Shown: positions 2,497 through 31,137 of the stretch, one piece after another | How the letters are laid out: each line of letters begins with the position of its first letter | Position numbering within the stretch: position 1 is the stretch's first letter | DNA from: Candidatus Gottesmanbacteria bacterium RIFCSPLOWO2_01_FULL_49_10 | GTDB taxonomy: Bacteria > Patescibacteriota > Microgenomatia > UBA10105 > UBA927 | Direction of reading: 5' to 3' | Assembly (NCBI GenBank): GCA_001781025.1 | Contig: MFJZ01000058.1 | Location: 34,583 to 83,526, forward strand | DNA length: 48,944 nt | The notes under the pieces: generated by a model | Databases searched by the model: none | The model's input: only the letters and a program-made list of their open reading frames with translations | What the model was told of the DNA's origin: nothing | Translations under genes and position numbers: made by a program

Positions 2497-3291
2497 TTAA
2501 GTGAGTTTTCTCTTCCGCATTCTCTTTGCGCCGGAACGTGGAGAACAGAGTATTTTGATATACACTTTTCTTCCCGACTCAATATAGTAATTGTAATATC
2601 TATCGGTGTAAGATCTTGAACGGAGAATATTTATAATCTGTTTACCGGTATATGTTTTTGAAAGATTAATCTCATCAAGGGAATTCACGTCGACTGCCTT
2701 ATGCAAAGTCGGCACTTCTGGAAAACGTGACTGGGGAATTCTTTTGTTGGTCTGTTGTTTAATTTTTGGCCATTCGTTTTTAAATAATGTAACTATTTGA
2801 TTGAGAGTCTTATTGTACAAAGTTTCCGCCGTATCCCACGGTAAAATTTTTATCTTTTTCCGCGCTATAATATCGCCGGTGTCAACTCCTCTATTTATGT
2901 AGTGCAATGATACTCCCCCATTTGACCCATCTATAAAAGGCCAAACGTTCGGATTCATTCCTCTGTTTTGAGGCAAGTATCCGGGGTGAAAATTAATACA
3001 ACCGAGTGTTGGTATGTCTATTACTTCCGGTTTGAGGATATATCCCCAGAAAGCGGAGACTCCAAGCTCAGGATTTAGTTTCTTTAAACGATGCAGGACT
3101 TTATTTTCATTTAATTCTTCGTGTACATATATATCCTGGGGTGATACGCGGGAATCCCGAACGATTTCTTTAACATAACGCTGTTTCTTAGTATCATGCA
3201 AACAAAGCGCAACTATCTCATCTTTCTGTTGTGTCAAATAGTTAGCAACCTGCCAGCCTACCCAATTATTAGCAAACAATATAATACGCAT
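2497..3291 (-). CDS. Formyltransferase, sugar N-formyltransferase-like
   Basis: 'MRIILFANNWVG' is a formyl_trans N-terminal fold. 'INFHPGYLPQNRGMNPNVWP' matches the HxxxLPxxRG folate-dependent formyltransferase motif. It sits directly downstream of a DegT aminotransferase. ATG 3291 is preferred over the TTG at 3303. Confidence 0.75.
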   Translation of the reverse strand: MRIILFANNWVGWQVANYLTQQKDEIVALCLHDTKKQRYVKEIVRDSRVSPQDIYVHEELNENKVLHRLKKLNPELGVSAFWGYILKPEVIDIPTLGCINFHPGYLPQNRGMNPNVWPFIDGSNGGVSLHYINRGVDTGDIIARKKIKILPWDTAETLYNKTLNQIVTLFKNEWPKIKQQTNKRIPQSRFPEVPTLHKAVDVNSLDEINLSKTYTGKQIINILRSRSYTDRYYNYYIESGRKVYIKILCSPRSGAKRMRKRKLT

Positions 3292-3308
3292 ACGTGAATA
3301 CAATTGTG

Positions 3309-4451
3309 TTATTTTAATAACAATTTTCGTATTACCGAAGCAATATAATCCACCATTCTCTCAGTGAGCATGACTCCGCTCGGAAGGTTTATTCCATTAT
3401 GAGAGACATGATATGACACAGGATTATTGATCGGTTGCTTATTATAAAAACAAAACTCCGAGATGGGGAAAAAGAATGGACGTGTGTCTATCTTCATTTC
3501 GCTCATTTTTATTCTTAGTTCATCCCGTGTTATACCGAAATCTGTATCTAAAACTATTGTATTCATCCAAAAACTACTCACAACTCCTTTGCGTTCCGGG
3601 CTAAATTGGATTCCTTTTATACCTCCGAGGCGTTCCCGGTACCAACGGTTAATTCTGCGTTTACGAGCAATAAGATCGTCAATATCTTCAAGCCTCGACA
3701 ATCCCAGCGCTGCCTGAATATTACTCATTGCATACATATACCCGATTTCATTGTGCCAAAATTGTCGCGTAAAACTTATTCCGTTATCTACAATCGATCT
3801 AGCGCGCTCAATCCAACCCTTATGTTTCGTGACCAGCATCCCTCCTTCTCCGATTGAAAGTAATTTCGCACCCTGAAAACTGAATGCAGCGGCATCAGAA
3901 AGGCTTCCGACCTGCTTCCCATGGAGAGTCGATCCTAAGCCTTCGCACGCGTCCTCAAGAATATGCAAATGATGCTTTTTTGCAATTTGCGCAATGCCGT
4001 CCATATCGGCAATATTCCCATACAAATGGACTGGCATGATAACTTTTGTCTTCTTCGTGATGTATTTCTCGAGGCGCGATGTGTCAATGGACCAGGTTTC
4101 CCGATCGATATCGACAAGAATAGGTATTGCTCCAAGCTGATGCACGACATTAGCGCACGTTACATAGGTCAGGTCCGGAACAATCACCTCATCCCCCCTT
4201 CCCACCCCCATGCACACAAGAGCAATATGGAGCGCGCTTGTCCCGTGAGGCATGCTGAGTGTATATTTCGCGTTAACGTATTTGGCGAATGCTTCTTCAA
4301 ATTTGTAAATGTAATCACTATGGTGGAGATTCCATCCGTTTTTAACGGCATCACTCACGTAACGGATATCATTTTTCCCGATTTTCGGCCCTGCAGTGAG
4401 TATCATTTTTGAAGGTTGCCACATTTTATATACGATTTTACCATATGTCAT
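3309..4451 (-). CDS. DegT/DnrJ/EryC1-family NDP-sugar aminotransferase (PLP-dependent)
   Basis: Contains 'MPHGTSALHIAL', 'DEVIVPDLTYVTCANVV' and 'FSFQGAKLLSIGEGGML' with the Schiff-base Lys retained. The start is uncertain. In-frame ATGs at 4424 and 4406 are alternatives. Confidence 0.85.
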   Translation of the reverse strand: MTYGKIVYKMWQPSKMILTAGPKIGKNDIRYVSDAVKNGWNLHHSDYIYKFEEAFAKYVNAKYTLSMPHGTSALHIALVCMGVGRGDEVIVPDLTYVTCANVVHQLGAIPILVDIDRETWSIDTSRLEKYITKKTKVIMPVHLYGNIADMDGIAQIAKKHHLHILEDACEGLGSTLHGKQVGSLSDAAAFSFQGAKLLSIGEGGMLVTKHKGWIERARSIVDNGISFTRQFWHNEIGYMYAMSNIQAALGLSRLEDIDDLIARKRRINRWYRERLGGIKGIQFSPERKGVVSSFWMNTIVLDTDFGITRDELRIKMSEMKIDTRPFFFPISEFCFYNKQPINNPVSYHVSHNGINLPSGVMLTERMVDYIASVIRKLLLK

Positions 4452-5759: not shown

Positions 5760-6770
5760 TTAATCTTTATACCGTTCTAATCCATTAAAAAGCATCGTAT
5801 AATACTCAAGCCTTGGATTCCTGCGCACTTCGGGTAAAAAATCGTTATCGGGAAGTCGTCTAATTTGGGTTTGAACGTATACTCTTTTGTGCCATGTGCT
5901 TCTCAGGTGACTCACGTTATACATCAATGCCTTAAGAACCGCGAGTGAATTTTCCGGTTTGCCTAAAATAGCAAATCCAAATAACGAAAGTATATTTAGC
6001 AGAAGATGCACCGGTAATACTTTTAGCAACGAATGCGCTTCCAAATTTTTTAAATAACTCATAAGCCTGTTTCGAGTAGCGTTGTACACCAGCTGTGAAT
6101 ACTTATATGTACTATTATCCATACCACCCAAATGGTACACGACAGCTTTGGGTTCATACCAAATCTTGTACCCTGCAAGAAGCGCCCGATGACAAAAGTC
6201 CGTCTCCTCAAAATAGAGAAAAAAATCTTCATCAAATAATCCTATTTTTTCAATCACCTCCCGTTTGACAAGCGTGCAGGCGCCGTTTACAGAATGCATT
6301 TGCATAGGAACATTGTATTTTGGTTCGTTTGGATCCTTACCATGCCCAAAATAATACAGAAAACCGGTATTCGTAAAAAACGTGCACCCGGCTTGAAGCT
6401 TCTTTGTTTTTTGAAATATAAGCTTCGGCTGTACGATACCGTTATTAGGATCTTCTTCCATTCGTCGGACCAGCGTTGTCAAAAAATCTTTCGTCACAAT
6501 CGTATCGTTATTTAATAAAAGAACATACTGCCCCCTGGCATACCGGTAAGCGTCATTGGTCCCCTTGCAATAACCAACATTCTGCTTAATTTTGATGATC
6601 CGCACATGCTTAAATGTCTTTTTCACGACTTGAGCAGTATCATCACTCGATCCGTTGTCATAGAGGATAATCTCATAGTCGACAAAAGAAATCTTCGCAA
6701 GCGACCTCAAGCAATCCACAGTATGCCTGCAGCCGTTGTAGTTCAAAATAATAATACTCACTTTCGTCAT
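5760..6770 (-). CDS. Family-2 glycosyltransferase (soluble, rhamnosyltransferase-like type)
   Basis: Contains 'VSIIILNYNGCRHTVDCLRSL...YEIILYDNGSSDDT...LLLNNDTIV...DEDFFLYFEETDFCHRA', a classic GT2 pattern. Confidence 0.85.
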   Translation of the reverse strand: MTKVSIIILNYNGCRHTVDCLRSLAKISFVDYEIILYDNGSSDDTAQVVKKTFKHVRIIKIKQNVGYCKGTNDAYRYARGQYVLLLNNDTIVTKDFLTTLVRRMEEDPNNGIVQPKLIFQKTKKLQAGCTFFTNTGFLYYFGHGKDPNEPKYNVPMQMHSVNGACTLVKREVIEKIGLFDEDFFLYFEETDFCHRALLAGYKIWYEPKAVVYHLGGMDNSTYKYSQLVYNATRNRLMSYLKNLEAHSLLKVLPVHLLLNILSLFGFAILGKPENSLAVLKALMYNVSHLRSTWHKRVYVQTQIRRLPDNDFLPEVRRNPRLEYYTMLFNGLERYKD

Positions 6771-6788
6771 AATAGAGGCGTCCTGCTA

Positions 6789-6797
6789 TGATATAAT
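6789..6797 (+). promoter_or_regulatory. Extended -10 box TGATATAAT upstream of rfbF (candidate promoter, near-leaderless)
   Basis: Read directly from the sequence. TGnTATAAT ends 8 nt before ATG 6806, and no GGAGG-like motif lies between them. Confidence 0.4.
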
Positions 6798-6805
6798 ACA
6801 AGCGT

Positions 6806-7585
6806 ATGAAAGTCATCATTCTCTGCGGCGGTATGGGAACCAGACTCAAAGAAGAAACGGAGTTTAAGCCCAAGCCGATGGTCCTGATAGGCAACAAACC
6901 CATCATTTGGCACATCATGAAGTATTACACCTATTATGGCTACAACGACTTTATTTTAGCCCTTGGGTATAAGGCAGACTACATCAAAGACTTCTTTCTC
7001 AACCAAAAGGCGTTCACTTCCGACTTTACCCTTAAAACCAAAAACCATACGACAAAGTTCTACTTAAACCATAGGATAGATGTTGACGATTTTACTATAA
7101 CGTTCGTTGATACGGGTCTCGAAACACAACCAGGGGAGCGAATCTTGCGCTGCCACAACTACATCCCCGCAAGCGACGCTCTTTTCATGGTAACGTATGG
7201 AGACGGTGTTACTGATCTCAACCTCAACGATCTTATCCGGTTTCATAAAAAACAGAACACGATAGGCACAGTGACCGGCGTACACCCCCGCTCGAAGTAC
7301 GGTCTGGTTCAACTTGGGAAAAACAATATCGTCTCCGGTTTTCAGGAAAAGCCGGTCTTATCCGACTGGGTAAACGGAGGTTTTGGTATCTACGACAAAC
7401 GGGCATTTGACTATTTCAAGCCCGGCGAAACGGAACACCCTGCACTCATGCGACTGGCAAAAGAAAAGCAACTATCGCTCTACAAGCATAACGGTTTTTG
7501 GTTCTCCGTGGACACGTATAAAGAATACGAAGATTTGAATACTCTCTGGAAATCCGGTACAAAACCTTGGATGGTATGGGAATGA
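6806..7585 (+). CDS. rfbF: Glucose-1-phosphate cytidylyltransferase (CDP-glucose synthase)
   Basis: 'MKVIILCGGMGTRLKEETEFKPKPMVLIGNKPIIWHIMKYYTYYGYNDFILALGYK' and the C-terminal 'FWFSVDTYKEYEDLNTLWKSG' match RfbF/DdhA/AscA along the full length by eye. Confidence 0.92.
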   Translation: MKVIILCGGMGTRLKEETEFKPKPMVLIGNKPIIWHIMKYYTYYGYNDFILALGYKADYIKDFFLNQKAFTSDFTLKTKNHTTKFYLNHRIDVDDFTITFVDTGLETQPGERILRCHNYIPASDALFMVTYGDGVTDLNLNDLIRFHKKQNTIGTVTGVHPRSKYGLVQLGKNNIVSGFQEKPVLSDWVNGGFGIYDKRAFDYFKPGETEHPALMRLAKEKQLSLYKHNGFWFSVDTYKEYEDLNTLWKSGTKPWMVWE

Positions 7586-8550
7586 GCCCTGACAATAGTA
7601 ATTGTTTAATCACCGGCGGCACAGGCTTCATAGGAAGCCACCTCGTAGAGGAGTTGGTACGACGGAAAAACCGCGTAACTGTCATCGACACAAACTTGCT
7701 CCCCCGTTCGTGGTTTTTACTAAACGGACTGGATAAAAAAACGAACCTTCTGCGCGTCGACGTACGTGACAGACATGCAATTTCCGCAATCATCAAAAAA
7801 CTTGAACCCCTTTATGTGTTCCACTTCGCGGCACGGGCCATCGTCGAAGAAGTCTATCAAAACCCACAAGAAGCCCTGGAAACCAACATTATGGGTACAG
7901 TCAATATACTGGAAGCGGCCAGAGCGTGCCACAACTTGAGATGCGTCCTCGTGACCTCCTCGGATAAAGCGTACGGCAAAAAGGAAGGCAAGTACCGCGA
8001 ATCAGACGCGCTCAAAGGCGATCATCCGTACGAAGTATCCAAATCCGCGGCGGATTTGATTGCGTATTCCTATTATAAGACCTATGGACTTCCCGTCACC
8101 ATTACAAGATTCGGCAATGTATACGGCGAGGGTGATTTACATTTCTCCCGAATTATTCCGGGCATCATGATGGCTCTTGTTACAGATAAAACTCTTGCAA
8201 TACGAAGTAACGGGAAATTCGTCAGAGACTATGTGTATGTAAAGGATATTGTAAACGGGTGCATGCGTTTGGCAGAGGAGGCAGATAAAACCACGGGCGA
8301 TGCATTTAATTTCGGTTCGCACGAAACACTCTCCGTTATAGATCTCATTAAAAAAGTCCAAAAACTCTTAAACAAAAAAATCAAATACGAAATTCTTAAC
8401 TGTACACAAAATGAAATTCCATCACAGTCTCTCGATTTTACGAAAATCACTAGGGTAATCTCATGGAAACCGACATGGTCTTTGGAGAAATCCATTTCTA
8501 ACATTTTTGAGTTCTACAAAAAATTCTATGAAATGTCGAGCCTGCAATAA
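7582..8550 (+). CDS. Extended-SDR NDP-hexose 4,6-dehydratase, probably CDP-glucose 4,6-dehydratase
   Basis: Contains 'ITGGTGFIGSHL', 'VTSSDKAYG' and 'HPYEVSKSAADL' (YxxxK). ATG 7582 overlaps the rfbF TGA (ATGA). The CDP specificity is inferred only from coupling to rfbF. Confidence 0.7.
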   Translation: MSPDNSNCLITGGTGFIGSHLVEELVRRKNRVTVIDTNLLPRSWFLLNGLDKKTNLLRVDVRDRHAISAIIKKLEPLYVFHFAARAIVEEVYQNPQEALETNIMGTVNILEAARACHNLRCVLVTSSDKAYGKKEGKYRESDALKGDHPYEVSKSAADLIAYSYYKTYGLPVTITRFGNVYGEGDLHFSRIIPGIMMALVTDKTLAIRSNGKFVRDYVYVKDIVNGCMRLAEEADKTTGDAFNFGSHETLSVIDLIKKVQKLLNKKIKYEILNCTQNEIPSQSLDFTKITRVISWKPTWSLEKSISNIFEFYKKFYEMSSLQ

Positions 8551-9739
8551 AGACATTGTTCCCTTTTTTTCTTTGGGCATGATGCCGCTGGTTAATTCTT
8601 TTCTTAAAAAAAAACAATTACCCAGAGAAAAAAAATACAACCTATCCCTTTCTTTTTGCCCATCCTGTTATCTTGTGCAACTCAATAAGACGGTACCTCC
8701 GGAGGAACTCTTTCGAAACTATATCTATTTTTCCTCAACTTCAAGCAAATTTCTTGAACATTGCCGGAAAACGGCAAATTATTTAACCAGGAGATTCCGC
8801 CTACATTCATCCTCTCTGGTTTTAGAAGTGGCCAGCAATGACGGGGCGCAGCTGCAATATTTTAAAAAATTAGGAATCCCCGTGCTAGGCATTGATCCTG
8901 CCCAAAATATAGCCAAAATTGCCAATGCGAAAGGCATTAGAACCATTCCTGAATTTTTTAATTTCAAATTCGCTCAAATACTATCCCGGGAAAAAAAGAT
9001 TCAAGCGGACTTGGTCTTCGGAGCAAACGTTCTGGCCCATGTTCCCGAAATCGTTGACTTTGTCAAAGGCATTAAATGTATTCTAAAGTCTACCGGCTCC
9101 GCTGTTTTTGAATTCCCTTATGTTGCAGGGTTATTTGAAAATAAATTCGACACCATTTATCACGAACACGTATTTTATTATTCTTTACTTGCTCTGCGTA
9201 ATCTTTTTCTTCAGGCTCACCTAATTATTTATGACGTGGAATTAACAGAAATGCAGGGGGGATCGCTCCGGATATTCGTTTCACATCCCAACGTATTCCC
9301 GGTTACCAGATATGTGACTCGTATGCTTGCGAGAGAACGCAAAGCCGACTTCAATGACATCCACCTATATCATCACATTAAAACCAATATAGAAAAATTA
9401 CGGTCCGATATTTTGCGTACCTTAACCGCTTTAAAGAAAGAAGGAAAGACAATTGCCGCCTATAGTGCACCTGCTAAAGGAAATGTTTTATTAAACTACT
9501 TCGGAATCGGCAGCAACTACCTTGATTTTATTGTCGATAAGTCGAAAGCAAAACAAGAGCTATACGCACCAGGAACGCACTTACTCATCAATCCGCCGAC
9601 TAAAATCTATAAAAAAAATCCTGATTACCTTTTAATCTTATGCTGGAACATCGCCGATGAAGTAATGGAAGAATATAAAAATTACCATACGAAGGGAGGA
9701 AAATTTATTATTCCGATTCCTCAATTGAAAATCATATGA
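8528..9739 (+). CDS. NDP-hexose C-methyltransferase-like enzyme (Zn-ribbon + SAM domain + C-methyltransferase C-terminal domain)
   Basis: 'MKCRACNK...FCPSCYLVQL' is a 4-Cys N-terminal domain. 'VLEVASNDGAQLQYFKK' is the SAM fold. The C-terminal domain is 'IAAYSAPAKGNVLLNYFGI...DKSKAKQELYAPGTHLLI'. This is the TylCIII-type architecture. ATG 8528 overlaps the previous gene by 23 nt. Confidence 0.8.
   Translation: MKCRACNKDIVPFFSLGMMPLVNSFLKKKQLPREKKYNLSLSFCPSCYLVQLNKTVPPEELFRNYIYFSSTSSKFLEHCRKTANYLTRRFRLHSSSLVLEVASNDGAQLQYFKKLGIPVLGIDPAQNIAKIANAKGIRTIPEFFNFKFAQILSREKKIQADLVFGANVLAHVPEIVDFVKGIKCILKSTGSAVFEFPYVAGLFENKFDTIYHEHVFYYSLLALRNLFLQAHLIIYDVELTEMQGGSLRIFVSHPNVFPVTRYVTRMLARERKADFNDIHLYHHIKTNIEKLRSDILRTLTALKKEGKTIAAYSAPAKGNVLLNYFGIGSNYLDFIVDKSKAKQELYAPGTHLLINPPTKIYKKNPDYLLILCWNIADEVMEEYKNYHTKGGKFIIPIPQLKII
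8606..8614. repeat. Homopolymer A9 in the C-methyltransferase gene, followed by A8 at 8628-8635
   Basis: Counted directly. The tracts encode KKK and EKK. Confidence 0.9.
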
Positions 9740-10278
9740 AATTTGAAAAAACGAAATTACTAGGAGTGTACATCGTCCATTTTGAACCAAAAAAGGACAA
9801 GCGGGGATATTTTGTCCGTACGTTTTGCCAGCAAGAGTTTGCCAATGCCGGTATAGCCTTTCACGTCGTCCAAATCAATCGCTCTCTCACGAAAAGGCAG
9901 GGAGCCATTCGCGGCATGCACTTCCAGCGCCAACCGCACCAAGAAGATAAGCTTGTTCAGTGCATAAAAGGAGCTATGTACGATGTAGCGCTCGATGTAC
10001 GGACGAATTCAAAGACATTTGGCCAGTGGATTGGTATCCAACTTACCAGTGACAATAACACAGCACTTTTTATCCCACAAGGCTATGCACACGGATTCCA
10101 GGTCATCGAGTCTGACACCGAGGCAGAATACTTCATGTCTCAATACTATTCACCACAGCATGCAACGGGAGTCCGGTGTACTGATCCTTTCTTTCAGATC
10201 ACCTGGCCGCTGCCTATACAATTTTCCTCCGCAAAAGACCAGGAGTGGCCACTTGTGGAAATAAATCAAAAAGCATGA
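9736..10278 (+). CDS. rfbC: NDP-4-keto-6-deoxyhexose 3,5-epimerase (RmlC/AscE cupin family)
   Basis: Contains 'DKRGYF', 'IRGMHFQ', 'KLVQCIKGAMYDVALDVR' and 'FIPQGYAHGF'. There is an ATGA overlap with the upstream stop at 9736-9739. Confidence 0.85.
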   Translation: MKFEKTKLLGVYIVHFEPKKDKRGYFVRTFCQQEFANAGIAFHVVQINRSLTKRQGAIRGMHFQRQPHQEDKLVQCIKGAMYDVALDVRTNSKTFGQWIGIQLTSDNNTALFIPQGYAHGFQVIESDTEAEYFMSQYYSPQHATGVRCTDPFFQITWPLPIQFSSAKDQEWPLVEINQKA

Positions 10279-11141
10279 ACACAGTACTCATCGGTAAACG
10301 CGGACAATTAGGCACCGAGTTGGAACGCGCACTATCAGGAAAAGGCGGAAAAGTATACGCGTTTGATCATCAAGAACTAGATATAACGGATTATCAACAT
10401 ACCAACGATGTACTCACACGAATACGCCCTGATATCGTGATAAACACATCGGCCTATCACGTTTTGAGTGAGTGTGAAACGCATCCGGAACAGGCATTCT
10501 TGGTCAATGCGATTGCGTTAAAAAATCTTGCAGTGACATGCCGGGACAACAAAATCAAACTCGTTACATACAGCACGGACTACGTGTTCGACGGCGCCAA
10601 GGGCAAGCCCTACACCGAATACGACTGCCCTAACCCACTACAATTATATGGATTATCCAAACTCGCAGGAGAATTTATTTGTTTCAACTATAATCCTGAT
10701 AGCATTGTTATCCGTACATGCGGTGTATATGGTGGTCAAAAAGGAAGTAGACAAAAAGGAGGGAATTTTGTTCTGACCATCCTTGAGGAATCAAGACACA
10801 AAACAACGATAGACGTCTCGACGGAACAGATCGTCAGTCCTACTCATGCGGGAGACTTAGCCCAATGCACCGTCGCGCTCGTTGAACAATATTCTGCCCG
10901 AGGTATATATCATTTAGTTAATGAAGGATATTGCTCCTGGTACGAATTTGCCAAAGAACTTATTACACTAAATAAACTCTCCATACGTATCAGGCCCATC
11001 GATAGAAAGGGAGTATTCTCCGGAATAAAACGTCCGCTATTCTCGGCGCTTACCAACACCAGAGCTAAAAGCGAAGGAATAATTATGCCGTCTTGGCAGG
11101 ACGGACTAAAAAGATATCTGTGGTATATTACCAAAAAATAG
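10275..11141 (+). CDS. rfbD: NDP-4-keto-6-deoxyhexose 4-reductase (RmlD/AscF family)
   Basis: Contains 'MNTVLIGKRGQLGTEL', 'YSTDYVFDG' and 'LYGLSKLAGE' (YxxxK). ATG 10275 forms an ATGA overlap with the epimerase stop. Confidence 0.85.
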   Translation: MNTVLIGKRGQLGTELERALSGKGGKVYAFDHQELDITDYQHTNDVLTRIRPDIVINTSAYHVLSECETHPEQAFLVNAIALKNLAVTCRDNKIKLVTYSTDYVFDGAKGKPYTEYDCPNPLQLYGLSKLAGEFICFNYNPDSIVIRTCGVYGGQKGSRQKGGNFVLTILEESRHKTTIDVSTEQIVSPTHAGDLAQCTVALVEQYSARGIYHLVNEGYCSWYEFAKELITLNKLSIRIRPIDRKGVFSGIKRPLFSALTNTRAKSEGIIMPSWQDGLKRYLWYITKK

Positions 11142-11165: not shown

Positions 11166-12626
11166 ATGAAAGTTCTATTTATTTCCTCTTCATTCGAAGA
11201 TGATGCCAGGAGCAAAACAATCAACATTAATTCTCATTATCCCATGGGTTTAGCTTATCTGCATGCGTTCCTTGAAAAATACGGCCATACCGTGCATACG
11301 CTTTTCCTCAACGACTACTCATACGCCGATTGCCGAAAAATTGTTCTTAAAAATGTAAAAATGCATTCACCGGATGTTGTCGGGTTTAATATCATCACAC
11401 AAAACAGAACCGCATCTTTCCGACTTATTCACCATATACATAAAAATAATCCACATATCCGTATATTGATCGGCGGTATACACACAACAGTCATGTATAA
11501 GCAAATCCTGAAACGTTTCCCCTATATCATCGCTGTTCTCGGGGAAGGTGAAATTACTGCAAAGGAAATTCTGGAGAAAATACATGCGAGAAAGAGTTTG
11601 CGGCACGTAGACGGTATTGCATACGTTTCAAAACGAAAAATTATTAAAACGAAAAACAGAGTACTTATTACGGATCTTGATACGCTTCCATTTCCAAAAC
11701 ATGAAGTTTTTTTCTCGGAAACACGCACGATTGCAAGCATGATCACAAGCCGCGGTTGTCCATTTCATTGCAGTTTTTGCGTGTTAAATGCCATTACGCG
11801 GGGCTATCCCCGAAAAAGATCAGTACAGAACGTCATAGCAGAAATCGAATATCTCATTGCCACATATCCGCAGCTGGAAACTATATGGTTTCACGATGAT
11901 CAATTTTTCCTCATTAATTCACGGGTTATTGAATTCTGCAATGAAATATTCCGGAAAAAAATCAAGCTGAAATTTATTTGCAGCGGGAGATTTAAACCAA
12001 TTTCAAAAGAAATGGTTGAGGCGTTAGAAAAAGCGGGGTTCATTCAAGTACTGCTTGGTCTGGAAAGCGGATCTCCAAAAATTCTCGATCTATGTCACAA
12101 ATTTATTACTCACGAAGACGTCATAAAGGCGATGACGCTATTTAAAAACTCAAAAATAATTATTTCTACGTTTTTGATCGTCGGGTTATATGGAGAAACC
12201 GATGAAACCGTCGAGGAGACGATTAGATTCGTTCAGCGCATACAAAGGATTAAGTACCTGGTTTTCGTGGACATCGGTATACTTCTGGTTTATCCGGGAA
12301 CGGAAATTTATAGCATTGCAAAAAAAAGAGGCTTTATGAATGACTCCTATTGGCTTACAGAAAAGCCGACTCCCTTTTTTACTGTCGAACACTCCCAAAA
12401 ACAATTAGAGGAATTCAAAAAACGTACATTAGACAGCATTGCAATTGGCCGTATCCTGACTCCATCGGGTTTTCCTCACCAGTATTACATGATACCATGG
12501 ATTATAAAATTTCTTATTGCACAAACACCACGCTATCCACTGTATGCAGGACATATTTTGCAGCGCTTCTTCCCATCGGTATACCTACGTGCGCATCATT
12601 TGTTTAACCGTAAGCCGCTTGTTTAA
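11166..12626 (+). CDS. B12-binding-domain radical SAM protein (class-B-like)
   Basis: The N-terminal Rossmann-like region 'KVLFISS...PDVVGFNIITQNR...ILIGGIHTT' is followed by 'ITSRGCPFHCSFCVLN' (CxxxCxxC). Confidence 0.85.
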   Translation: MKVLFISSSFEDDARSKTININSHYPMGLAYLHAFLEKYGHTVHTLFLNDYSYADCRKIVLKNVKMHSPDVVGFNIITQNRTASFRLIHHIHKNNPHIRILIGGIHTTVMYKQILKRFPYIIAVLGEGEITAKEILEKIHARKSLRHVDGIAYVSKRKIIKTKNRVLITDLDTLPFPKHEVFFSETRTIASMITSRGCPFHCSFCVLNAITRGYPRKRSVQNVIAEIEYLIATYPQLETIWFHDDQFFLINSRVIEFCNEIFRKKIKLKFICSGRFKPISKEMVEALEKAGFIQVLLGLESGSPKILDLCHKFITHEDVIKAMTLFKNSKIIISTFLIVGLYGETDETVEETIRFVQRIQRIKYLVFVDIGILLVYPGTEIYSIAKKRGFMNDSYWLTEKPTPFFTVEHSQKQLEEFKKRTLDSIAIGRILTPSGFPHQYYMIPWIIKFLIAQTPRYPLYAGHILQRFFPSVYLRAHHLFNRKPLV

Positions 12627-12630
12627 CCAC

Positions 12631-12659
12631 TTGTGCTTAAAAGTTTTCTTCACTATACT
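12631..12659 (+). promoter_or_regulatory. Candidate sigma70-type promoter TTGTGC-17 nt-TATACT upstream of the secreted-protein gene
   Basis: The -35-like TTGTGC is at 12631-12636 and TATACT at 12654-12659, with a 17-nt spacer. ATG 12669 lies 9 nt downstream. Confidence 0.4.
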
Positions 12660-12668
12660 GTGTTTATT

Positions 12669-13220
12669 ATGAAAAAGACTATTCTCTCGGCTATTTCGTT
12701 TCTGATTATTCTGTCTTTCTCAGTGACACTCATACATGCGCAGGAACCTAACGAAACGCCTCAAGCATCACCCACTCCTACAATACAATATAAAATGCCT
12801 TATCCGGGCATGCTTCCGGACAATTCATTATACAAACTTAAAGTGCTTCGGGATAAAATTATACTTGCTTTAATCCAGGATCCGAACAAAAAAGCCGGAT
12901 ACTATCTTCTATTGGCTAACAAACAGCTACTCATGAGCAGGATGCTCATCGATAAAGGGAATATTCCATTAGCACGAGAAACTGCCCTTAAAGGAGAAAA
13001 CCAGATAACTCTCATGACGTTCGTCTTTAAAAACGCTGGTCGAGAACCACAAGCAAATTTTTTAGACGAAGTAAAGCTGGCAAGCCTTAAACATCAAGAG
13101 TTATTAGAAGAAATTATTAGCAAAGTTAACACAAACGACGCGAAAATCTTTTCTGATATACTGGAATTTTCACAACGAAATGTTAGAGAACTTCAAAGAC
13201 TGACAGAAGACAGAAATTGA
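12669..13220 (+). CDS. Secreted helical protein, DUF5667-like; paralogue of 44495..45037
   Basis: The signal peptide is 'MKKTILSAISFLIILSFSVTLIHA'. It is followed by the Pro/Thr-rich stretch 'QEPNETPQASPTPT' and then 'YKMPYPGMLPDNSLYKLKVLRDKI'. ATG 12669 is preferred over the GTG at 12633. Confidence 0.6.
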   Translation: MKKTILSAISFLIILSFSVTLIHAQEPNETPQASPTPTIQYKMPYPGMLPDNSLYKLKVLRDKIILALIQDPNKKAGYYLLLANKQLLMSRMLIDKGNIPLARETALKGENQITLMTFVFKNAGREPQANFLDEVKLASLKHQELLEEIISKVNTNDAKIFSDILEFSQRNVRELQRLTEDRN

Positions 13221-13254: not shown

Positions 13255-14199
13255 ATGAGACAAATTTCTGTCTGTCCCATTTGTCACAGATACTCTTTCC
13301 AAACTCTTTACGAAAGCACGGACAGAATGTTTCATATACCCGGCAAATTTTCCGTTTTAAAATGTAATAACTGTAGCATTGCCTTTCTTAATCCCAGACC
13401 TTCGTTCAGGGAACTCCAAAAATATTATCCTACCAAAAGATACTACGCTTATAACGAAAACAAAAAAGGTTTCTTCTCGTTTATACGTGAGTATTTAATT
13501 AAGCATTACTATGCCCCGACGATAGTATCAAAAATCATTTCTGTGTTTATCTCGAATGTTCCCGCTATGCCTACCTGGAAAAATTCTGGTAAAATCCTCG
13601 ACGTAGGATGCGGTACAGGAGAAACGCTGCAGCTTCTTAAAAGGCTTGGATGGGATGTATATGGCATAGATATTGACCGTCGTGCCATCAAAATTGCTCG
13701 CCAAAAAGGTTTAAGCCGCGTAGAATATGGTGCGTATCAACATCTTTCAACCTATCCGGATCATTTTTTTGATGCGATCCGACTATACCATGTCATCGAA
13801 CATCTGGATAACCCGCAAGAATGCCTCAGAATCATAGCGCAAAAGTTAAAAATCGATGGCGAAATCATTATTGGCACACCAAATGTAGAAAGCATTGTGG
13901 CACGTATCTTTAAACACTATTGGTACAATCTCGATTCTCCACGTCATCTCATTCTTTTTTCAGCAAATACCCTTAGGAAAATATTAAAAAAAGAAGGATA
14001 TTTACCAAATGAGGTTAGATTCTGCTCAGCAGGTGGGATGGCCGGAAGCATGCAGTACGTGTTGTTTCAGATTACCGGACGAACAATAAATCTCATCAAT
14101 AATACGTTATTTGTTCTTCTCATCTATCCTTTTGAGTGGATATTTGATCGCCTTAAACAAGGAGATATTTTAATCGTGAGAGCAAAATTGTATACCTAA
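13255..14199 (+). CDS. Class I SAM-dependent methyltransferase with an N-terminal Cys4 ribbon
   Basis: Contains 'CPICHR...CNNCSIAFLNP', the SAM motif I 'ILDVGCGTGETLQLL' and 'YHVIEHLDNPQ'. Confidence 0.8.
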   Translation: MRQISVCPICHRYSFQTLYESTDRMFHIPGKFSVLKCNNCSIAFLNPRPSFRELQKYYPTKRYYAYNENKKGFFSFIREYLIKHYYAPTIVSKIISVFISNVPAMPTWKNSGKILDVGCGTGETLQLLKRLGWDVYGIDIDRRAIKIARQKGLSRVEYGAYQHLSTYPDHFFDAIRLYHVIEHLDNPQECLRIIAQKLKIDGEIIIGTPNVESIVARIFKHYWYNLDSPRHLILFSANTLRKILKKEGYLPNEVRFCSAGGMAGSMQYVLFQITGRTINLINNTLFVLLIYPFEWIFDRLKQGDILIVRAKLYT

Positions 14200-14570
14200 G
14201 ATAATGGTCTATTTGATTGCCTTGTTCTCCATTTTTGCACCAAGAGTTGTGCAAGACTCATCCACAGTAAAACATATACCGCGACTCCGATTAAGTCTGC
14301 TACGGAATTTTTTCCAATTAATACTGCCAGAATTGCAGTAACAATTAACGCTAACGAAGCCCACAACGAATACGAAATTTGAGGCTTAAAAATATTAATA
14401 ATGATTACGTACGGGACGATAACTTGTACGATTGGATTCATAAAAAATACGTTCAGATAAGGCACTACAGATAACAATTTAAATAACACAAATAATACTC
14501 CCGCTATTGCTAAAAATTTGACACCAGTCCATTCCTGTATAGAAGTGAGTTTAACTTTTAATAAATTCAT
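14196..14570 (-). CDS. Small (124 aa) integral membrane protein with 3-4 predicted helices, function unknown
   Basis: Hydrophobic segments include 'FLAIAGVLFVLFKLLSVV', 'IVQVIVPYVIIINIF', 'LWASLALIVTAILAVLIG' and 'LIGVAVYVLLWMSLAQLL'. There is an ATGA overlap (14567-14570) with the upstream 1144-aa gene. Confidence 0.6.
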   Translation of the reverse strand: MNLLKVKLTSIQEWTGVKFLAIAGVLFVLFKLLSVVPYLNVFFMNPIVQVIVPYVIIINIFKPQISYSLWASLALIVTAILAVLIGKNSVADLIGVAVYVLLWMSLAQLLVQKWRTRQSNRPLS

Positions 14571-17500
14571 AGTTTATAGAATTTTATAATGCGATGTATC
14601 ACAAGTATACATAAAACACTTCCTGCCCCGAGCATAGATATCATTATTCCGATATAAAACATTACTTGGGGCTCATACATGAAAATGAGTGTATGAGCAT
14701 TTGTATTTTGGATCAGCCAACCGTTCGCATAGCCGTCTACAAGAAAGTGACCTTGATCATTCGATTTGAGCGTGGATAATCTGATAGTTGTAATTATTTT
14801 TTGAATATTGTCTTTCGCTTTACCTACCTCTCCGATATCTTCAAGGGGAATAACTCTCCACCCGTTATTGAATAATTCGTTTAGTTTGATCATATATGGT
14901 CCACTGACATTTTCCAACCGTACAGAATATAAGGTTGGATCTATTTTTTGAACTGTTATCGATGGCTGATCCAGCCTATCCAAATAAGAAAAATCACGTT
15001 CAAGCAAAACGGAAATAGGTGAATTAGTTGGTATCGAATTTAAATTCTCCACGGTGATTCTTGCAGGAGAATCATCATACGATCTAAATATTACCTTAAT
15101 TGATTGACTACGATCGTTTAAAGTATAGTTTTTTCTAATTTTATGCCATTTTTCATCAGCCTCAAGTGAAATAATTTGTGTACTCTGACATGAATTATTT
15201 GTTCCTCCCGTAATTATTGCAACGATATTATTGCCTCTTTCTATATGATAATTAAATTGAAGCAAATAGGATTGGCCGTCATCGTAATAAGGAAAAGAAT
15301 ATTCTTTCTCTCCATATTCGTTCAGAACAACAGAGTCCTGATCCAATAAAGTTATACCGTTTGTCTGATCCGAATCTGATATATATATATCCAAAATATG
15401 GATTCCGCGATTGAAAAAAATAGGTTTAGTGCTATCTAACATTGACTTTGTGGCTGTATCAATGATATTTTCTATATTTTGATTTGAAACAATTTTATAT
15501 TCACCGTCATCGGGTACGTTAAAAACATATCGTTGCTGATTGACTATATTCGGCATTTGTTGAGCCACCTTTCTATTTATAGAGTTGAGATAATCAAGAA
15601 TTTCAATAAATTTATCAGGACCAAATTCACTTTTTCTAATTGATTCGGCAAGCACTTGTCTTTGTGCGTCCAAATAAATAGATAAAACCATGTTCATTTT
15701 GTATTGTTCAACCTCTGACATTTTTTGTATTATGTCAACTAAATTTGTAATTTCTTTCTTATATTCCTGCAGGTTGTTTACAATTAATTTTCTGTTTCTT
15801 TCCTTCTTTTTCCCATAATCCAGTAGCTGATTTATTTCAGTAACTCGTTTGAATGACAAGCTTGAATATATATCGAACAAAACCGACGGATTATTACTAA
15901 ATTTTCGAAGCTGTAATTGTTCTTTAAAATTAATCAGTTGATAAAAAAGAGAACCAGGTAATATATTTAAATATGGAAATACTGCCCTATCTTCATAAAT
16001 ATGACGCTCCCCGTAGTCGCAAAGAATACACCTCCCTTTTATTGCGGCTTTATCCGCAAATTTAGATAATAAGTTCTCCTTAGAGGTTGTCTGTAAGGAG
16101 CTATCTGCACTAATTATATTTTCATTTGAAATATTGTTTTGATTGAATATAATAGGCACGATACTCGGATCGGAAATTAACTGAATCTGTGATATCACTT
16201 CAACCGGAGGACGAGGTGTTTCTATCAGGGCATATAATGTCCATAATTCAGATTTCTTCTTTATGTGCACACCGGGCATAGATTCTAGCGAAGTTTTTAA
16301 ATAAGCAAAATTATTCGCAGTAAGACATTTGTTTGTATCTAGAATGTCATCCCGCCACAGAAAGTAAGAAATTCCCAATCTGGAACTGATCACGTTAAAC
16401 ATATTAGGGTTTCGATCCGTAAGCGCTTTTATTAACGACTGTGTTAATGCTCCGGATGGATTACCGTCTGTAATATAGGTTGTATTTATATTTGAATTAA
16501 CTAAGGAATAACTACTCCAGAATCCCCAGCTATATCCGTCGGCACCAGAAGTCATATCTGTAGTTGGTAGCGAAAGAATCCTTGAATTTGAAGGAACATT
16601 CTGTCTTATATAATCAATCATTTCTGTAACATATGTAGGGACCACAACTCTCGTAGTAAAAGGTTTGTTCCAATCAAAAAAGTTGCCAAGAAAAAATGGA
16701 TAATGATAGGCCAGAATATATAAAATCGCGCATACGCCTACCATTCTTCTAAAAAAGTCATTCTTGAGAAATGAAAAAGTCAGACCATTGACCATATAAC
16801 CAAAAAGGAAAGCCATAGAAAACCAAACCATTGGTCCAAATTTGTATATCGATGACCTAAATATTGAAAATCCTGGTACATTTTTGATAAACCATATGTA
16901 AATTCGACCAAATGGCTCATGAGATCCTCCGGCAAAGACTATTCCCACAAGTAGAACGGAAAATATAACAAGCATTAATTGATCTCTCTGAGCCTCTCGA
17001 CGAAAACGGAGATATAAGCTAGCGCCGAGAACGATGGTAATTATCGGAACAAAACTTAAAATAATGAGACCGGGATTATTTAAATACGCTTGTGAAAAGG
17101 GATGAAATAGACTATCGTACCAATCAGGGACCCCCTGCATTCGGAGAAGGTTTATAACACTTGAATTTTTTGAAACAACCTGTTCCCAATTAATGACACC
17201 GTTTACACCGCCCAGTGATGAAACTGTAGAATTATAACTTTTGATAACATCCATCACTTGGGGAAAAAGCCAATACGCGTTAAGAAAACCCGTAAAAAAT
17301 AATGAAGAAGCAATAAATATTATCGTTCGAATTATCGACCGTAGACCATCATTGATACTTTGAATAACGGTCAAAATTATAATGGTGATCAAAGTGGTAA
17401 TAATTAACCCGCCAAAATAAGGCACCAGACTTCCGCCGTTTAGGAAAAAAATTGTAATTCCGATATATAAACCGGCCATCACCGGGTGAATTTTTTTTGT

Positions 17501-18001
17501 CAAAGCACGATAAGTAATAACAAATACTATCGGCAACGCGGCATACGCAGAAAATTTTGCGCGCTCGACTATGAACCACGCCTGTAAAATAAAAAAATTA
17601 TATACATATAAAAGCGTCGTTGCTAATCTCAAAATCCAAAATTTACTTTCCGGAAAAAGCTTTCGAATAGAAAAATACATTGAAAAACTCATAACTAAAA
17701 ACCAAAATACGAAAGTGAGAGTCTGGCCCATGGCAGTCGACTTTGTAAGCGTCATAAAAATTGTCTCCGGTAATTGGGTAATCAAAAATCCTTTAAGAAC
17801 CGAAAAATCAGCACCAAAATTATGATATGAATCCCATGAGTAGAAAAGGCTTTTCAGGTATTCCAGGGAATTTACTCTGAAGCCGGAATCATGACCTAAT
17901 ACTATTTGATTACCGTGGAGCCAAAAAAGAGGGGTAAGAGAACAAGTAAAAATAACCGTAATTTCAATAATTTTTCTGAAAAGTGATTTATATTTATCCA
18001 T
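14567..18001 (-). CDS. Giant (1144 aa) polytopic membrane protein, GT-C-like with AftD/DUF3367-like N-terminus
   Basis: The N-terminal loop 'GHDSGFRVNSLEYLKSLFYSWDSYHNFGADF' resembles the AftD-family 'DTK..L..P..FL....W....FG' loop. About 480 aa of repeated hydrophobic helices follow, then about 620 aa of soluble region, then a terminal TM 'FYIGIMISMLGAGSVLCILV'. The family call is tentative. Confidence 0.6.
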   Translation of the reverse strand: MDKYKSLFRKIIEITVIFTCSLTPLFWLHGNQIVLGHDSGFRVNSLEYLKSLFYSWDSYHNFGADFSVLKGFLITQLPETIFMTLTKSTAMGQTLTFVFWFLVMSFSMYFSIRKLFPESKFWILRLATTLLYVYNFFILQAWFIVERAKFSAYAALPIVFVITYRALTKKIHPVMAGLYIGITIFFLNGGSLVPYFGGLIITTLITIIILTVIQSINDGLRSIIRTIIFIASSLFFTGFLNAYWLFPQVMDVIKSYNSTVSSLGGVNGVINWEQVVSKNSSVINLLRMQGVPDWYDSLFHPFSQAYLNNPGLIILSFVPIITIVLGASLYLRFRREAQRDQLMLVIFSVLLVGIVFAGGSHEPFGRIYIWFIKNVPGFSIFRSSIYKFGPMVWFSMAFLFGYMVNGLTFSFLKNDFFRRMVGVCAILYILAYHYPFFLGNFFDWNKPFTTRVVVPTYVTEMIDYIRQNVPSNSRILSLPTTDMTSGADGYSWGFWSSYSLVNSNINTTYITDGNPSGALTQSLIKALTDRNPNMFNVISSRLGISYFLWRDDILDTNKCLTANNFAYLKTSLESMPGVHIKKKSELWTLYALIETPRPPVEVISQIQLISDPSIVPIIFNQNNISNENIISADSSLQTTSKENLLSKFADKAAIKGRCILCDYGERHIYEDRAVFPYLNILPGSLFYQLINFKEQLQLRKFSNNPSVLFDIYSSLSFKRVTEINQLLDYGKKKERNRKLIVNNLQEYKKEITNLVDIIQKMSEVEQYKMNMVLSIYLDAQRQVLAESIRKSEFGPDKFIEILDYLNSINRKVAQQMPNIVNQQRYVFNVPDDGEYKIVSNQNIENIIDTATKSMLDSTKPIFFNRGIHILDIYISDSDQTNGITLLDQDSVVLNEYGEKEYSFPYYDDGQSYLLQFNYHIERGNNIVAIITGGTNNSCQSTQIISLEADEKWHKIRKNYTLNDRSQSIKVIFRSYDDSPARITVENLNSIPTNSPISVLLERDFSYLDRLDQPSITVQKIDPTLYSVRLENVSGPYMIKLNELFNNGWRVIPLEDIGEVGKAKDNIQKIITTIRLSTLKSNDQGHFLVDGYANGWLIQNTNAHTLIFMYEPQVMFYIGIMISMLGAGSVLCILVIHRIIKFYKL

Positions 18002-18013
18002 AATCTTATACGA

Positions 18014-19177
18014 TCAATGCAATGTTTGTCTTAATGATTTAGCGAAAATCAAATTCCATGAATACTCTCTTCCTAACTTCAGAGATCTATCTCTAAATGA
18101 TCGGAGTTTTTTTTCGTCTAAAAGCAATTTTATTATCCCCTCAGCGATTTTGTGCATGTTGTCTGAAACTGCGATACCTACCCTTCTTTTAACTATCTCT
18201 TTCCATACATCGGGCACTTTAGTGATTATGATGGGCAATCCAACAGCAAGATATGCCTTAACTTTTCCCGGATCCGTATATCGTACAAAATTATCGGGAC
18301 TGTCCACGTATGGAGCAATTGCAGCAGCACATTTTGCTAATAATGCCTCCACCTCATCATGATTTTTTATAAATCCATAAAATGTTACATACTTTTGCAG
18401 ATGTAACTTTTGCACCATATCCAAAAGCTCACTTTCCATTGGTCCCCCGCCAATGATGTCGAAATGAAAGTGCGGAAGCTTTGTTACAATCAACGGAATA
18501 GCTTCTATAACCGACTGTACTCCCTGTTTCTTCGTTAAATGGCCCATATGAGCCAAATGATAACGTTTGATCTTACTAAAAGGCACGGGGTTTGTGATAG
18601 CGTCAGTTCCTACGGGAACGACTATCTGTTTTTTTCTAATTTCCGGATCATTAAGACCCTTTCTTGAACGTTCGAGTTCCATGATTGAAGATAGATTCCA
18701 TAAAGTATCTGCGTTTTTCGCCGCAAAAGCGTCCAGCTTGTGATAGACAGCATTAATGAACGGGTTTGCAAAACGGTGGGGAATATAGTCAATAGTATAA
18801 AAAACAGTTTTTTTTACTAACCCCACCTTTTGGAGCAGTATTCCCATGCATGCATTGATGTTATCCACACCGATAAAAATATCCGTATATCCCAAGCGAA
18901 TACACCACCATAACGTCAACACTGCATCCTTTATGACACTGACAAATTGAAAAGGTACGTGCCAAGGAAAAATAATTTCCTTAACTCGTACGCCGCTGAC
19001 GTCAAAAATGCTCAAATGTGATCGTTTCTCTTTTGCAAAGACAAAGGGATGCGCGATAAATGCAAGGTGCGCAGTTTTTCCCCGTAGATAGGTTGCAAGC
19101 GCATGCGGCGGACCGGTCGCATACTCATGGGTGACAATGACCACACGCAATTGGTGAAGCTTAGCGGTTAAATTCAT
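18014..19177 (-). CDS. GT-B fold glycosyltransferase (GT4-like); paralogue of 4583..5749
   Basis: Contains 'FDIIGGGPMESELLDMV...AIAPY...YTDPGKVKAYLAVGLPIIITKVP'. ATG 19177 (MNLTAKLHQLRVVIVTHEY) was chosen. The longer ORF-track N-terminus lies inside the upstream gene. Confidence 0.75.
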   Translation of the reverse strand: MNLTAKLHQLRVVIVTHEYATGPPHALATYLRGKTAHLAFIAHPFVFAKEKRSHLSIFDVSGVRVKEIIFPWHVPFQFVSVIKDAVLTLWWCIRLGYTDIFIGVDNINACMGILLQKVGLVKKTVFYTIDYIPHRFANPFINAVYHKLDAFAAKNADTLWNLSSIMELERSRKGLNDPEIRKKQIVVPVGTDAITNPVPFSKIKRYHLAHMGHLTKKQGVQSVIEAIPLIVTKLPHFHFDIIGGGPMESELLDMVQKLHLQKYVTFYGFIKNHDEVEALLAKCAAAIAPYVDSPDNFVRYTDPGKVKAYLAVGLPIIITKVPDVWKEIVKRRVGIAVSDNMHKIAEGIIKLLLDEKKLRSFRDRSLKLGREYSWNLIFAKSLRQTLH

Positions 19178-31057: not shown

Positions 31058-31137
31058 AATGATGATATCTAAAGAATAGCAGAGTATACGGCGCAAATCT
31101 ACCTGATCATTGCAGGATAAAATTTAGGAACGACCCC

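Follow-up and report, generated by a model that had tools for sequence, protein, structure and literature searches.

Introduction

The subject of this work is a set of five genes at positions 6806 to 11141 of a 48,944-nucleotide (nt) stretch of contig MFJZ01000058.1 from Candidatus Gottesmanbacteria bacterium RIFCSPLOWO2_01_FULL_49_10 (the whole stretch is called the 49-kb window, or the window, below), which are predicted to make a cytidine diphosphate (CDP)-linked, C-methyl-branched 6-deoxyhexose. In the closest described system, a four-gene operon of Bacillus cereus, a cytidylyltransferase, a dehydratase, a C-methyltransferase and a reductase reportedly give CDP-3-C-methyl-6-deoxyhexoses, and the methyltransferase reportedly acts directly on the 3-hydroxylated 4-keto sugar. 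A related compound, CDP-vinelose of Azotobacter vinelandii, was reportedly described in the 1960s by Okuda, Suzuki and Suzuki as CDP-6-deoxy-3-C-methyl-2-O-methyl-L-talose, and we know of no assignment of vinelose genes. In the deoxythymidine diphosphate (dTDP)-L-mycarose pathway, the late steps are taken by TylC3, which methylates C-3 of a 4-keto sugar, TylK, which epimerises C-5, and TylC2, which reduces C-4. The B. cereus operon is the subject, by its title, of Li et al. (2017, J Biol Chem 292:7636; title cited in PMC10050317). CDP-cereose and CDP-cillose are entered in a catalogue of known CDP sugars, in which the experimental references given are B. cereus Q81B33 (cytidylyltransferase, 255 amino acids (aa)) and Q81B31 (C-methyltransferase, 407 aa) (PMC7725333). 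These lengths equal those of the plasmid-borne B. cereus-group genes compared here. Virenose is known from Coxiella, and the O-antigen of Burkholderia andropogonis contains 3-C-methylrhamnose (PMC7203242).

Judged from their sequences, the five genes of the window constitute, with a probability that we put at roughly two in three, one translationally coupled operon that would lead from glucose-1-phosphate to a CDP-linked, C-methyl-branched 6-deoxy-L-hexose for the surrounding glycosyltransferases. The first three predicted steps and their gene order (RfbF-type transferase, 4,6-dehydratase, TylC3-type methyltransferase) are those of the B. cereus (cereose) operon, to whose plasmid-borne copies in the B. 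cereus group the window proteins are 43%, 34% and 43% identical, respectively, and the predicted product is of the same class, a CDP-3-C-methyl-6-deoxyhexose for a surface glycan. The window differs in adding an RmlC-like epimerase, in having a dehydratase from a shorter sister clade of RfbG, and in its RmlD-type reductase, which gave no BLAST match to the cassette reductases of B. cereus or Methylocystis and has only the short-chain dehydrogenase/reductase (SDR) fold in common with them; moreover, the product is predicted to be L-configured, whereas the cereose-type sugars are D-gulo and D-allo. A Methylocystis cassette has the same five-gene order, and S. meliloti likewise has ddhA and ddhB linked to a C-methyltransferase gene; both are known from annotation alone and differ from the window in reductase class and dehydratase clade.

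The expected product would fall in the same class as CDP-vinelose, that of the CDP-linked 3-C-methyl L-6-deoxyhexoses, to which vinelose adds a 2-O-methyl group. The late steps proposed here follow the mycarose-type logic, and the window methyltransferase has the fold and the catalytic residues of the methyltransferase of that pathway type (TylC3) and of TcaB9, KijD1 and MtmC; those systems differ in being dTDP-linked, in their 2,6-dideoxy or 3-amino substrates and in their place in actinomycete antibiotic clusters, and identity to them is 31-35%. With CDP-L-ascarylose (AscA-F of Yersinia pseudotuberculosis), the window has in common the AscA/AscB-type first steps and a genuine E1 (AscC/RfbH), but its E1 lies in a separate cluster, the window yielded no E3 (AscD), and the ascarylose pathway itself has no C-methyltransferase. 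With RmlABCD of dTDP-L-rhamnose, it has in common the RmlC-like and RmlD-like folds, their catalytic motifs and scores above the NCBIfam cutoffs; it differs in an RfbF-type instead of an RmlA-type transferase, in an Asp-Lys instead of an Asp-Glu dyad in the dehydratase, and in the 100/100 split of its epimerase and reductase from rfbA-linked references.

Results

Gene order and coupling

A sequence-only reading of this DNA had described five tightly coupled genes in the order rfbF, 4,6-dehydratase, C-methyltransferase, 3,5-epimerase and 4-reductase, with which the open reading frames (ORFs), their overlaps and the Pfam and NCBIfam domains agree (Table 1). Read directly from the DNA, all five plus-strand ORFs are free of internal stops, ATGA junctions lie at 7582-7585, 9736-9739 and 10275-10278, and the methyltransferase ATG at 8528 precedes the dehydratase stop codon (8548-8550), which gives an overlap of 23 nt. 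The three ATGA overlaps and the 23-nt overlap of that reading were thus all seen, with the qualification that the dehydratase has alternative in-frame starts at ATG 7576 and TTG 7567 and that the public gene call begins at 7576, so that the first overlap is either 4 or 10 nt. Since the same overlapping layout recurs in two related metagenomic contigs of the candidate phyla radiation (CPR), L003 and L007, the five genes form a conserved set that did not come together by chance.

Between positions 6400 and 14700, 21 promoter-like sites were counted against 20.2 in shuffled sequence, and 8 terminator-like sites against 6.8. As neither count exceeds chance, no operon boundary is claimed beyond the gene overlaps. 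The sole promoter-like site upstream of the operon (6764-6805, plus strand) consists of TCGTCA, 17 nt and TG-TATGAT and ends at 6792, 13 nt before the rfbF ATG; a TATAAT lies at 6791-6796. None of the five starts is preceded by an evident Shine-Dalgarno-like sequence. This arrangement points to a leader that is very short or missing, with the promoter scan as a whole at chance level.

Table 1. Position, strand and supporting matches of the operon genes and of other features of the window.
Feature	Position	Strand	Support
RfbF-type glucose-1-phosphate cytidylyltransferase	6806-7585	+	259 aa; TIGR02623, 1TZF
Extended-SDR NDP-glucose 4,6-dehydratase, sister clade of RfbG	7582-8550	+	322 aa; motif and tree
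SAM-dependent NDP-4-keto-hexose C-methyltransferase, TylC3/TcaB9/MtmC family	8528-9739	+	403 aa; PF08421, PF08484
RmlC-like cupin epimerase	9736-10278	+	180 aa; PF00908, TIGR01221
RmlD-like NAD(P)H 4-ketoreductase	10275-11141	+	288 aa; PF04321, TIGR01214
GT2 glycosyltransferase, divergent from operon	5760-6770	-	PF00535 88.5 bits
B12-binding radical SAM protein, 25 nt after reductase	11166-12626	+	PF02310 and PF04055
Class I SAM methyltransferase	13255-14199	+	PF13489 94 bits
ColC/GDP-fucose-synthase-like epimerase-reductase	19161-20138	-	NF047922 214.5 bits, below cutoff
ColD-like 3-dehydratase	20135-21316	-	PDB ColD 2GMS 186 bits; His replacing the pyridoxal phosphate (PLP) lysine
E1 (RfbH, CDP-4-keto-6-deoxyglucose 3-dehydrase)	21334-22653	-	NF011936 559.9 bits (cutoff 423)
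CDP-tyvelose 2-epimerase homologue	30032-31096	-	PDB 9RL0 316 bits, 1ORR 303 bits; STNKVYG
NDP, nucleoside diphosphate; SAM, S-adenosylmethionine.

Transferase and dehydratase

For the transferase, TIGR02623 was by far the best model, matched over the full length at 261.8 bits, and because this score lies under the model's cutoff the protein is classed, on its sequence, as a divergent member of RfbF. TIGR01207 (RmlA) gave only 24.8 bits. The structure of S. typhi RfbF (PDB 1TZF) aligned over the full length (E 9e-57, 41% identity), while the next structural classes reached E 1e-17; identity to Salmonella RfbF was 40%, and RmlA proteins aligned over only about 50 N-terminal residues and were split from the transferase with a bootstrap of 100/100 in a neighbour-joining tree. 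Among the non-overlapped ORFs of at least 150 aa, this RfbF-like gene is the single nucleotidyltransferase gene of the window.

The dehydratase scored 204 bits with TIGR02622 (CDP) and 183 bits with TIGR01181 (dTDP), both below cutoff, and its top PDB matches were dTDP-glucose dehydratases (129 bits, against 114 for 1RKX). Since BLAST and the PDB ranking could not assign the nucleotide, the assignment had to be drawn from motif and tree together. The segment SSDKAY aligns with the TSDKCY (Asp-Lys) of the CDP-glucose 4,6-dehydratases, represented by 1RKX and by PGAP-annotated rfbG, but matches neither TDEVYG of RmlB nor STNKVYG of the tyvelose epimerase; the YxxxK motif is also present, and the S-D-K motif occurs in no other SDR of the window. 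With one outlier (L030) removed, the clade of the dehydratase joined RfbG, Salmonella RfbG included, in 95/100 neighbour-joining replicates and RmlB in 4/100. Identity to RfbG is only 29-34%, and the clade into which the protein falls is a shorter sister of RfbG.

Methyltransferase

The sequence-only reading had recognised a TylCIII-type methyltransferase, which the domain architecture bears out: a PF08421 zinc ribbon (residues 3-62, 70 bits), a class I SAM domain (91-230) and PF08484 (Methyltransf_14; 242-398, 176 bits). The zinc cysteines (Cys3, Cys6, Cys44, Cys47) and the SAM motif are conserved, and Y65, H171, Y211, E213 and H214, mapped through an alignment with KijD1, are invariant in a 13-sequence alignment; these we take to correspond to TcaB9 Y76, H181, Y222, E224 and H225, the positions of the TcaB9 mutant structures. 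PDB matches were MtmC (258 bits, 35% identity), KijD1 (232 bits, 31%) and TcaB9 (225 bits). The protein is 43-45% identical to its rfbF-linked counterparts in B. cereus and Methylocystis, and the nearest characterised relatives, the B. cereus type (43%), MtmC and KijD1, all act on C-3. At least 6418 homologues were found with E <=1e-20; among the matches listed, the closest named ones were from CPR bacteria (62-66% identity), followed by proteins of about 46% identity across many phyla.

Epimerase and reductase

The epimerase matched PF00908 (202 bits) and TIGR01221 (168.5 bits, cutoff 155.75) and carries the motifs RGMHFQ, DKLVQC, QYYSP and SAKD. Its PDB matches were true 3,5-epimerases (137 bits), ahead of NovW (2C0Z, 93.6) and EvaD (81). 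The reductase matched PF04321 (261.5 bits) and TIGR01214 (270.8 bits, cutoff 224.05), with the catalytic motifs STDYVFDG and YGLSKLAGE. In neighbour-joining trees, each was split at 100/100 from five rfbA-linked RmlC or RmlD references (Salmonella, Marinobacter, Lactiplantibacillus, Bacillus, Phaeobacter), the epimerase grouping with cassette-linked homologues, and the RmlC and RmlD homologues that group with the window proteins are physically linked to RfbF-like genes.

The CDP linkage put forward in the sequence-only reading is therefore supported by the RfbF-type transferase, by the Asp-Lys dehydratase and by the separation of the epimerase and reductase from rfbA-linked ones. Clustering with dTDP- or guanosine diphosphate (GDP)-specific clades was not what the trees gave: the dehydratase went with RfbG, and the other two stood apart from rfbA-linked RmlC and RmlD.

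Proposed pathway and product

In the proposed pathway, the RfbF-type enzyme would join cytidine triphosphate and glucose-1-phosphate into CDP-D-glucose, which the dehydratase, an SDR carrying the Asp-Lys dyad, would convert into CDP-4-keto-6-deoxy-D-glucose. The TylC3/TcaB9-type enzyme would then deprotonate C-3 beside the 4-keto group, giving an enolate, and place the SAM methyl group on C-3. Because C-3 would now be quaternary, the RmlC-like enzyme would epimerise C-5 only, and thus probably serves as a C-5 epimerase; the RmlD-like enzyme would finally reduce the 4-keto group. On this scheme the operon would be self-sufficient, with E1 acting in a parallel 3,6-dideoxyhexose branch on the same pool of CDP-4-keto-6-deoxyglucose.

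The likely product is CDP-6-deoxy-3-C-methyl-L-hexose. If C-3 were inverted, as in the gulo/allo pair of the cereose type, it would be CDP-6-deoxy-3-C-methyl-L-mannose (3-C-methyl-L-rhamnose) or the L-talo isomer, the latter being the un-O-methylated core of vinelose. The sequences show to which families the proteins belong, that catalytic residues are conserved, that the genes are coupled and that the methyltransferase clade is linked to RfbF-type genes; we infer the regiochemistry, the order of the methylation and epimerisation steps and the stereochemistry.

A more specific proposal, which we regard as doubtful, is that CDP-specific sister clades of RmlC, RmlD and RfbG make an L-configured CDP-3-C-methyl-6-deoxyhexose that may be tailored by the B12-radical SAM protein or the downstream methyltransferase, or else that the C-methyltransferase acts on an E1/ColD product to give a 3,6-dideoxy-3-C-methyl sugar. 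If true, the former would be the first gene assignment for the L-configured CDP-3-C-methyl-6-deoxyhexose class (3-C-methyl-L-rhamnose or the vinelose core), and acceptance of the E1/ColD product would yield a sugar not yet seen in nature.

Distribution of the cassette

A census was made of the 80 closest of at least 596 methyltransferase loci in GTDB species-representative genomes, in which neighbours were scored on the same strand within 6 kb and E1 anywhere up to 8 kb on either side. RfbF-like genes were present in 68 of the 80 loci and RmlC-like genes in 54. An SDR occupied the dehydratase slot in 62 (30 RfbG-type, 28 of another type, 5 of the window type). Transferase, methyltransferase, epimerase and reductase occurred together in 20 loci, with an aminotransferase replacing the reductase in 4 more; the reductase was of the RmlD type in 3/80, and a strong E1 match was found in none. 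In 28 loci of the 80 (L012-L091), the other SDR of the dehydratase slot carries SSCSMY in place of an Asp-Lys or Asp-Glu dyad, as do, for example, L006 6950-7990 and L092 4890-5936.

Similar arrangements were found on plasmids: rfbF-rfbG-methyltransferase-rfbC-oxidoreductase, the identical five-gene order, on that of Methylocystis sp. MJC1; rfbF-rfbG-methyltransferase-SDR on B. cereus-group megaplasmids; and rfbF, an RmlC-family gene and the same methyltransferase type in linkage on a Brachyspira plasmid. S. meliloti SMb21416-21418 are annotated as ddhA, ddhB and NDP-hexose 3-C-methyltransferase. In L003 and L007, a divergent GT2 gene lies upstream of the cassette, and downstream of it comes a DUF5667 gene.

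A CDP-linked 6-deoxyhexose with a C-methyl branch, as part of a surface glycan, is established chemistry. The sequence-only reading had considered such a product new and had known the methyltransferase architecture only from dTDP sugars of actinomycetes; both views are overtaken by the operon known from B. cereus, by the spread of the cassette through genomes and by its frequent RfbF-like neighbour.

E1 and its cluster

The E1 dehydrase that the sequence-only reading had placed about 10 kb away is genuine, lying 10.2 kb off on the opposite strand and outside the operon. It matched the Yersinia E1 structures 3BB8 and 3BCX at 398-402 bits and retains the HH motif and the cysteines of the [2Fe-2S] cluster; its minus-strand gene cluster also holds the ColD-like gene, the ColC-like gene and another SDR. 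Two different 3-deoxygenation systems (E1, of the pyridoxamine phosphate (PMP) and [2Fe-2S] type, and the ColD-like PMP 3-dehydratase) thus stand side by side in the island. No FNR-like or 2Fe-2S ferredoxin-reductase domain of an E3/AscD was found in the window's non-overlapped ORFs of at least 150 aa; such a protein could be encoded elsewhere in the genome. CDP-glucose can be regarded as the hub of the island, since besides the operon the window encodes a true E1 and a strong homologue of CDP-tyvelose 2-epimerase.

Another E1-like gene, with 45% identity to the window E1, stands beside a transketolase-like pair that is split in two, its N-terminal half at 651-1571 and its pyrimidine-binding and C-terminal half upstream. 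Together they take up positions 1-1571 of the window (minus strand) and 1-1258 of contig L001, just outside the window (window position 7576 is 9049 in L001). The L003 island has a 594-aa thiamine diphosphate (ThDP) enzyme. The transketolase-like pair with the E1-like gene recalls the ThDP-dependent two-carbon branching of yersiniose.

Assessment of the reading and its alternatives

Several points weigh against our reading of the operon. The transferase and dehydratase scores fall short of the respective model cutoffs (trusted cutoff 300.25 bits for TIGR02623; 278 bits for TIGR02622), pairwise BLAST of the dehydratase is ambiguous, RfbG and RmlB alike matching it at 27-29% identity, and the split that unites RfbG with the window clade is absent when L030 is kept in the tree. 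The trees are neighbour-joining trees with five dTDP-pathway references each, the epimerase and reductase pass NCBIfam models named for dTDP rmlC and rmlD, an RmlA gene could lie elsewhere in the genome, members of the methyltransferase family such as NovU can methylate C-5, and no biochemical characterisation of the epimerase-containing cassette was found in the literature.

Some of these points would suit a set in which the three downstream enzymes work on a sugar that other parts of the genome supply, linked to dTDP or to another nucleotide than CDP, with the RfbF-like gene serving the E1 branch only; the above-cutoff rmlC and rmlD scores and the PDB ranking of the dehydratase speak for it. 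We consider it very unlikely, given the translational overlap of all five genes, the Asp-Lys dyad and the 95/100 grouping with RfbG, the clades of the epimerase and reductase apart from rfbA-linked ones, the RfbF linkage in the census and the lack of an RmlA in the window. Less remote, though still unlikely, is noviose-like chemistry on a CDP sugar, in which C-5 methylation (as by NovU), an RmlC-like 3-epimerase (NovW) and an RmlD-like enzyme acting as NovS would give a 5-C-methyl (gem-dimethyl) 6-deoxyhexose. The enzyme set matches NovU/NovW/NovS, and NovW is among the epimerase matches; but the epimerase is nearer to the true 3,5-epimerases than to NovW or EvaD, the closest characterised relatives of the methyltransferase are all C-3 enzymes, and the C-methyl 6-deoxyhexoses of bacterial surface glycans that we found in the literature are all 3-C-methyl. 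That the methyltransferase has a non-sugar substrate, or that the cassette has decayed and is non-functional, is hardly credible: nothing specific speaks for it, the ORFs are intact, the catalytic residues and the genomic context are conserved, the latter across phyla, and every structurally solved relative found is an NDP-sugar C-methyltransferase.

The sequence-only reading had seen the operon together with E1 as a CDP-L-ascarylose scheme interrupted by the methyltransferase, which would then act on a CDP-3,6-dideoxy-4-keto intermediate and lead to a C-methyl-branched 3,6-dideoxyhexose. A true E1 does lie 10.2 kb away, E1 is also found near the cassette in its closest relative, L003, and because the window has no second cytidylyltransferase or CDP-type dehydratase, the E1 and operon branches must share their early steps. 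Yet E1 lies in a cluster of its own, whose ColD-like, ColC-like and SDR genes can complete a 3,6-dideoxyhexose alone; the window yielded no E3/AscD-like gene; no strong E1 match was found in the flanking DNA of any census locus (up to 8 kb on either side), nor any E1 in the flanking DNA examined around the L007, Methylocystis and B. cereus cassettes; and the B. cereus enzyme reportedly methylates the 3-hydroxylated 4-keto sugar directly. We therefore hold methylation within an ascarylose-like route to be decidedly unlikely, and an interrupted ascarylose pathway less likely than parallel branches. Since the cassette is without E1 in every sampled GTDB locus, two or more parallel branches sharing CDP-4-keto-6-deoxyglucose are the simplest reading, and E1 probably belongs to a separate one.

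The surrounding glycan island

The 49-kb window, part of an 83-kb scaffold from a Rifle aquifer metagenome, is a glycan island that encodes many GT2 and GT4 glycosyltransferases, several modules for sugar tailoring and membrane proteins resembling YfhO/PMT. The GT2 gene divergent from the operon, whose counterparts in L003 and L007 (336-337 aa) are placed in the same way, encodes a candidate transferase for the operon product. The B12-binding radical SAM protein is 100% identical to a protein of Candidatus Gottesmanbacteria bacterium RIFCSPLOWO2_01_FULL_49, a CPR member, and reached no NCBIfam model at cutoff (best BchE 158 bits, HpnJ 150 bits). It is probably not a member of the pathway: it is absent from the sister cassettes of L003 and L007, and its homologues (56-69% identity) occur with other glycan modules, adjoining genes for a GT1, an SDR of 325 aa and a DegT-like protein of 391 aa in other islands (L094, L095). 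Distant relatives of the class I SAM methyltransferase farther downstream lie beside the cassette in L024, L031, L044, L069 and L072; one may speculate that it is an O-methyltransferase.

At 2497-4451 (minus strand), a sugar N-formyltransferase gene (N_formyltrans_C domain) adjoins one for a DegT-type aminotransferase. Characterised sugar N-formyltransferases are known to use dTDP, GDP or uridine diphosphate sugars; the only nucleotidyltransferase of the window being RfbF-like, linkage of a formamido sugar to CDP would be unusual. The island has several DUF5667 proteins, at 12633-13220 (plus strand), 14567-18001 (minus) and 44495-45166 (minus). A DUF5667 gene follows the radical SAM gene in the window and comes directly after the cassette in L003 (12548-13150) and L007 (10604-11155). 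In the 195-aa DUF5667 protein, a hydrophobic segment at the N-terminus leads into a stretch rich in Pro and Thr; the protein might, speculatively, be a glycosylated surface protein.

Discussion

The sampled clade of TylC3-type methyltransferases is mostly linked to RfbF-type cytidylyltransferases, in many phyla. TylC3-type sugar C-methyltransferases are thus not confined to the dTDP sugars of actinomycete antibiotic clusters, which corrects an outdated assumption. Annotation is touched as well, in that genes called 'rfbC' and 'rfbD' within these cassettes probably encode CDP-sugar enzymes and not dTDP-rhamnose enzymes. The epimerase-containing cassette brings no new class of chemistry, but it lends itself to the assignment of genes for 3-C-methyl-L-rhamnose or for sugars of the vinelose type. 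For a CPR bacterium with a small genome, the window holds a large island that appears to be devoted to several CDP-glucose-derived sugars, with C-methyl, E1, ColD/ColC-like and tyvelose-epimerase-like branches.

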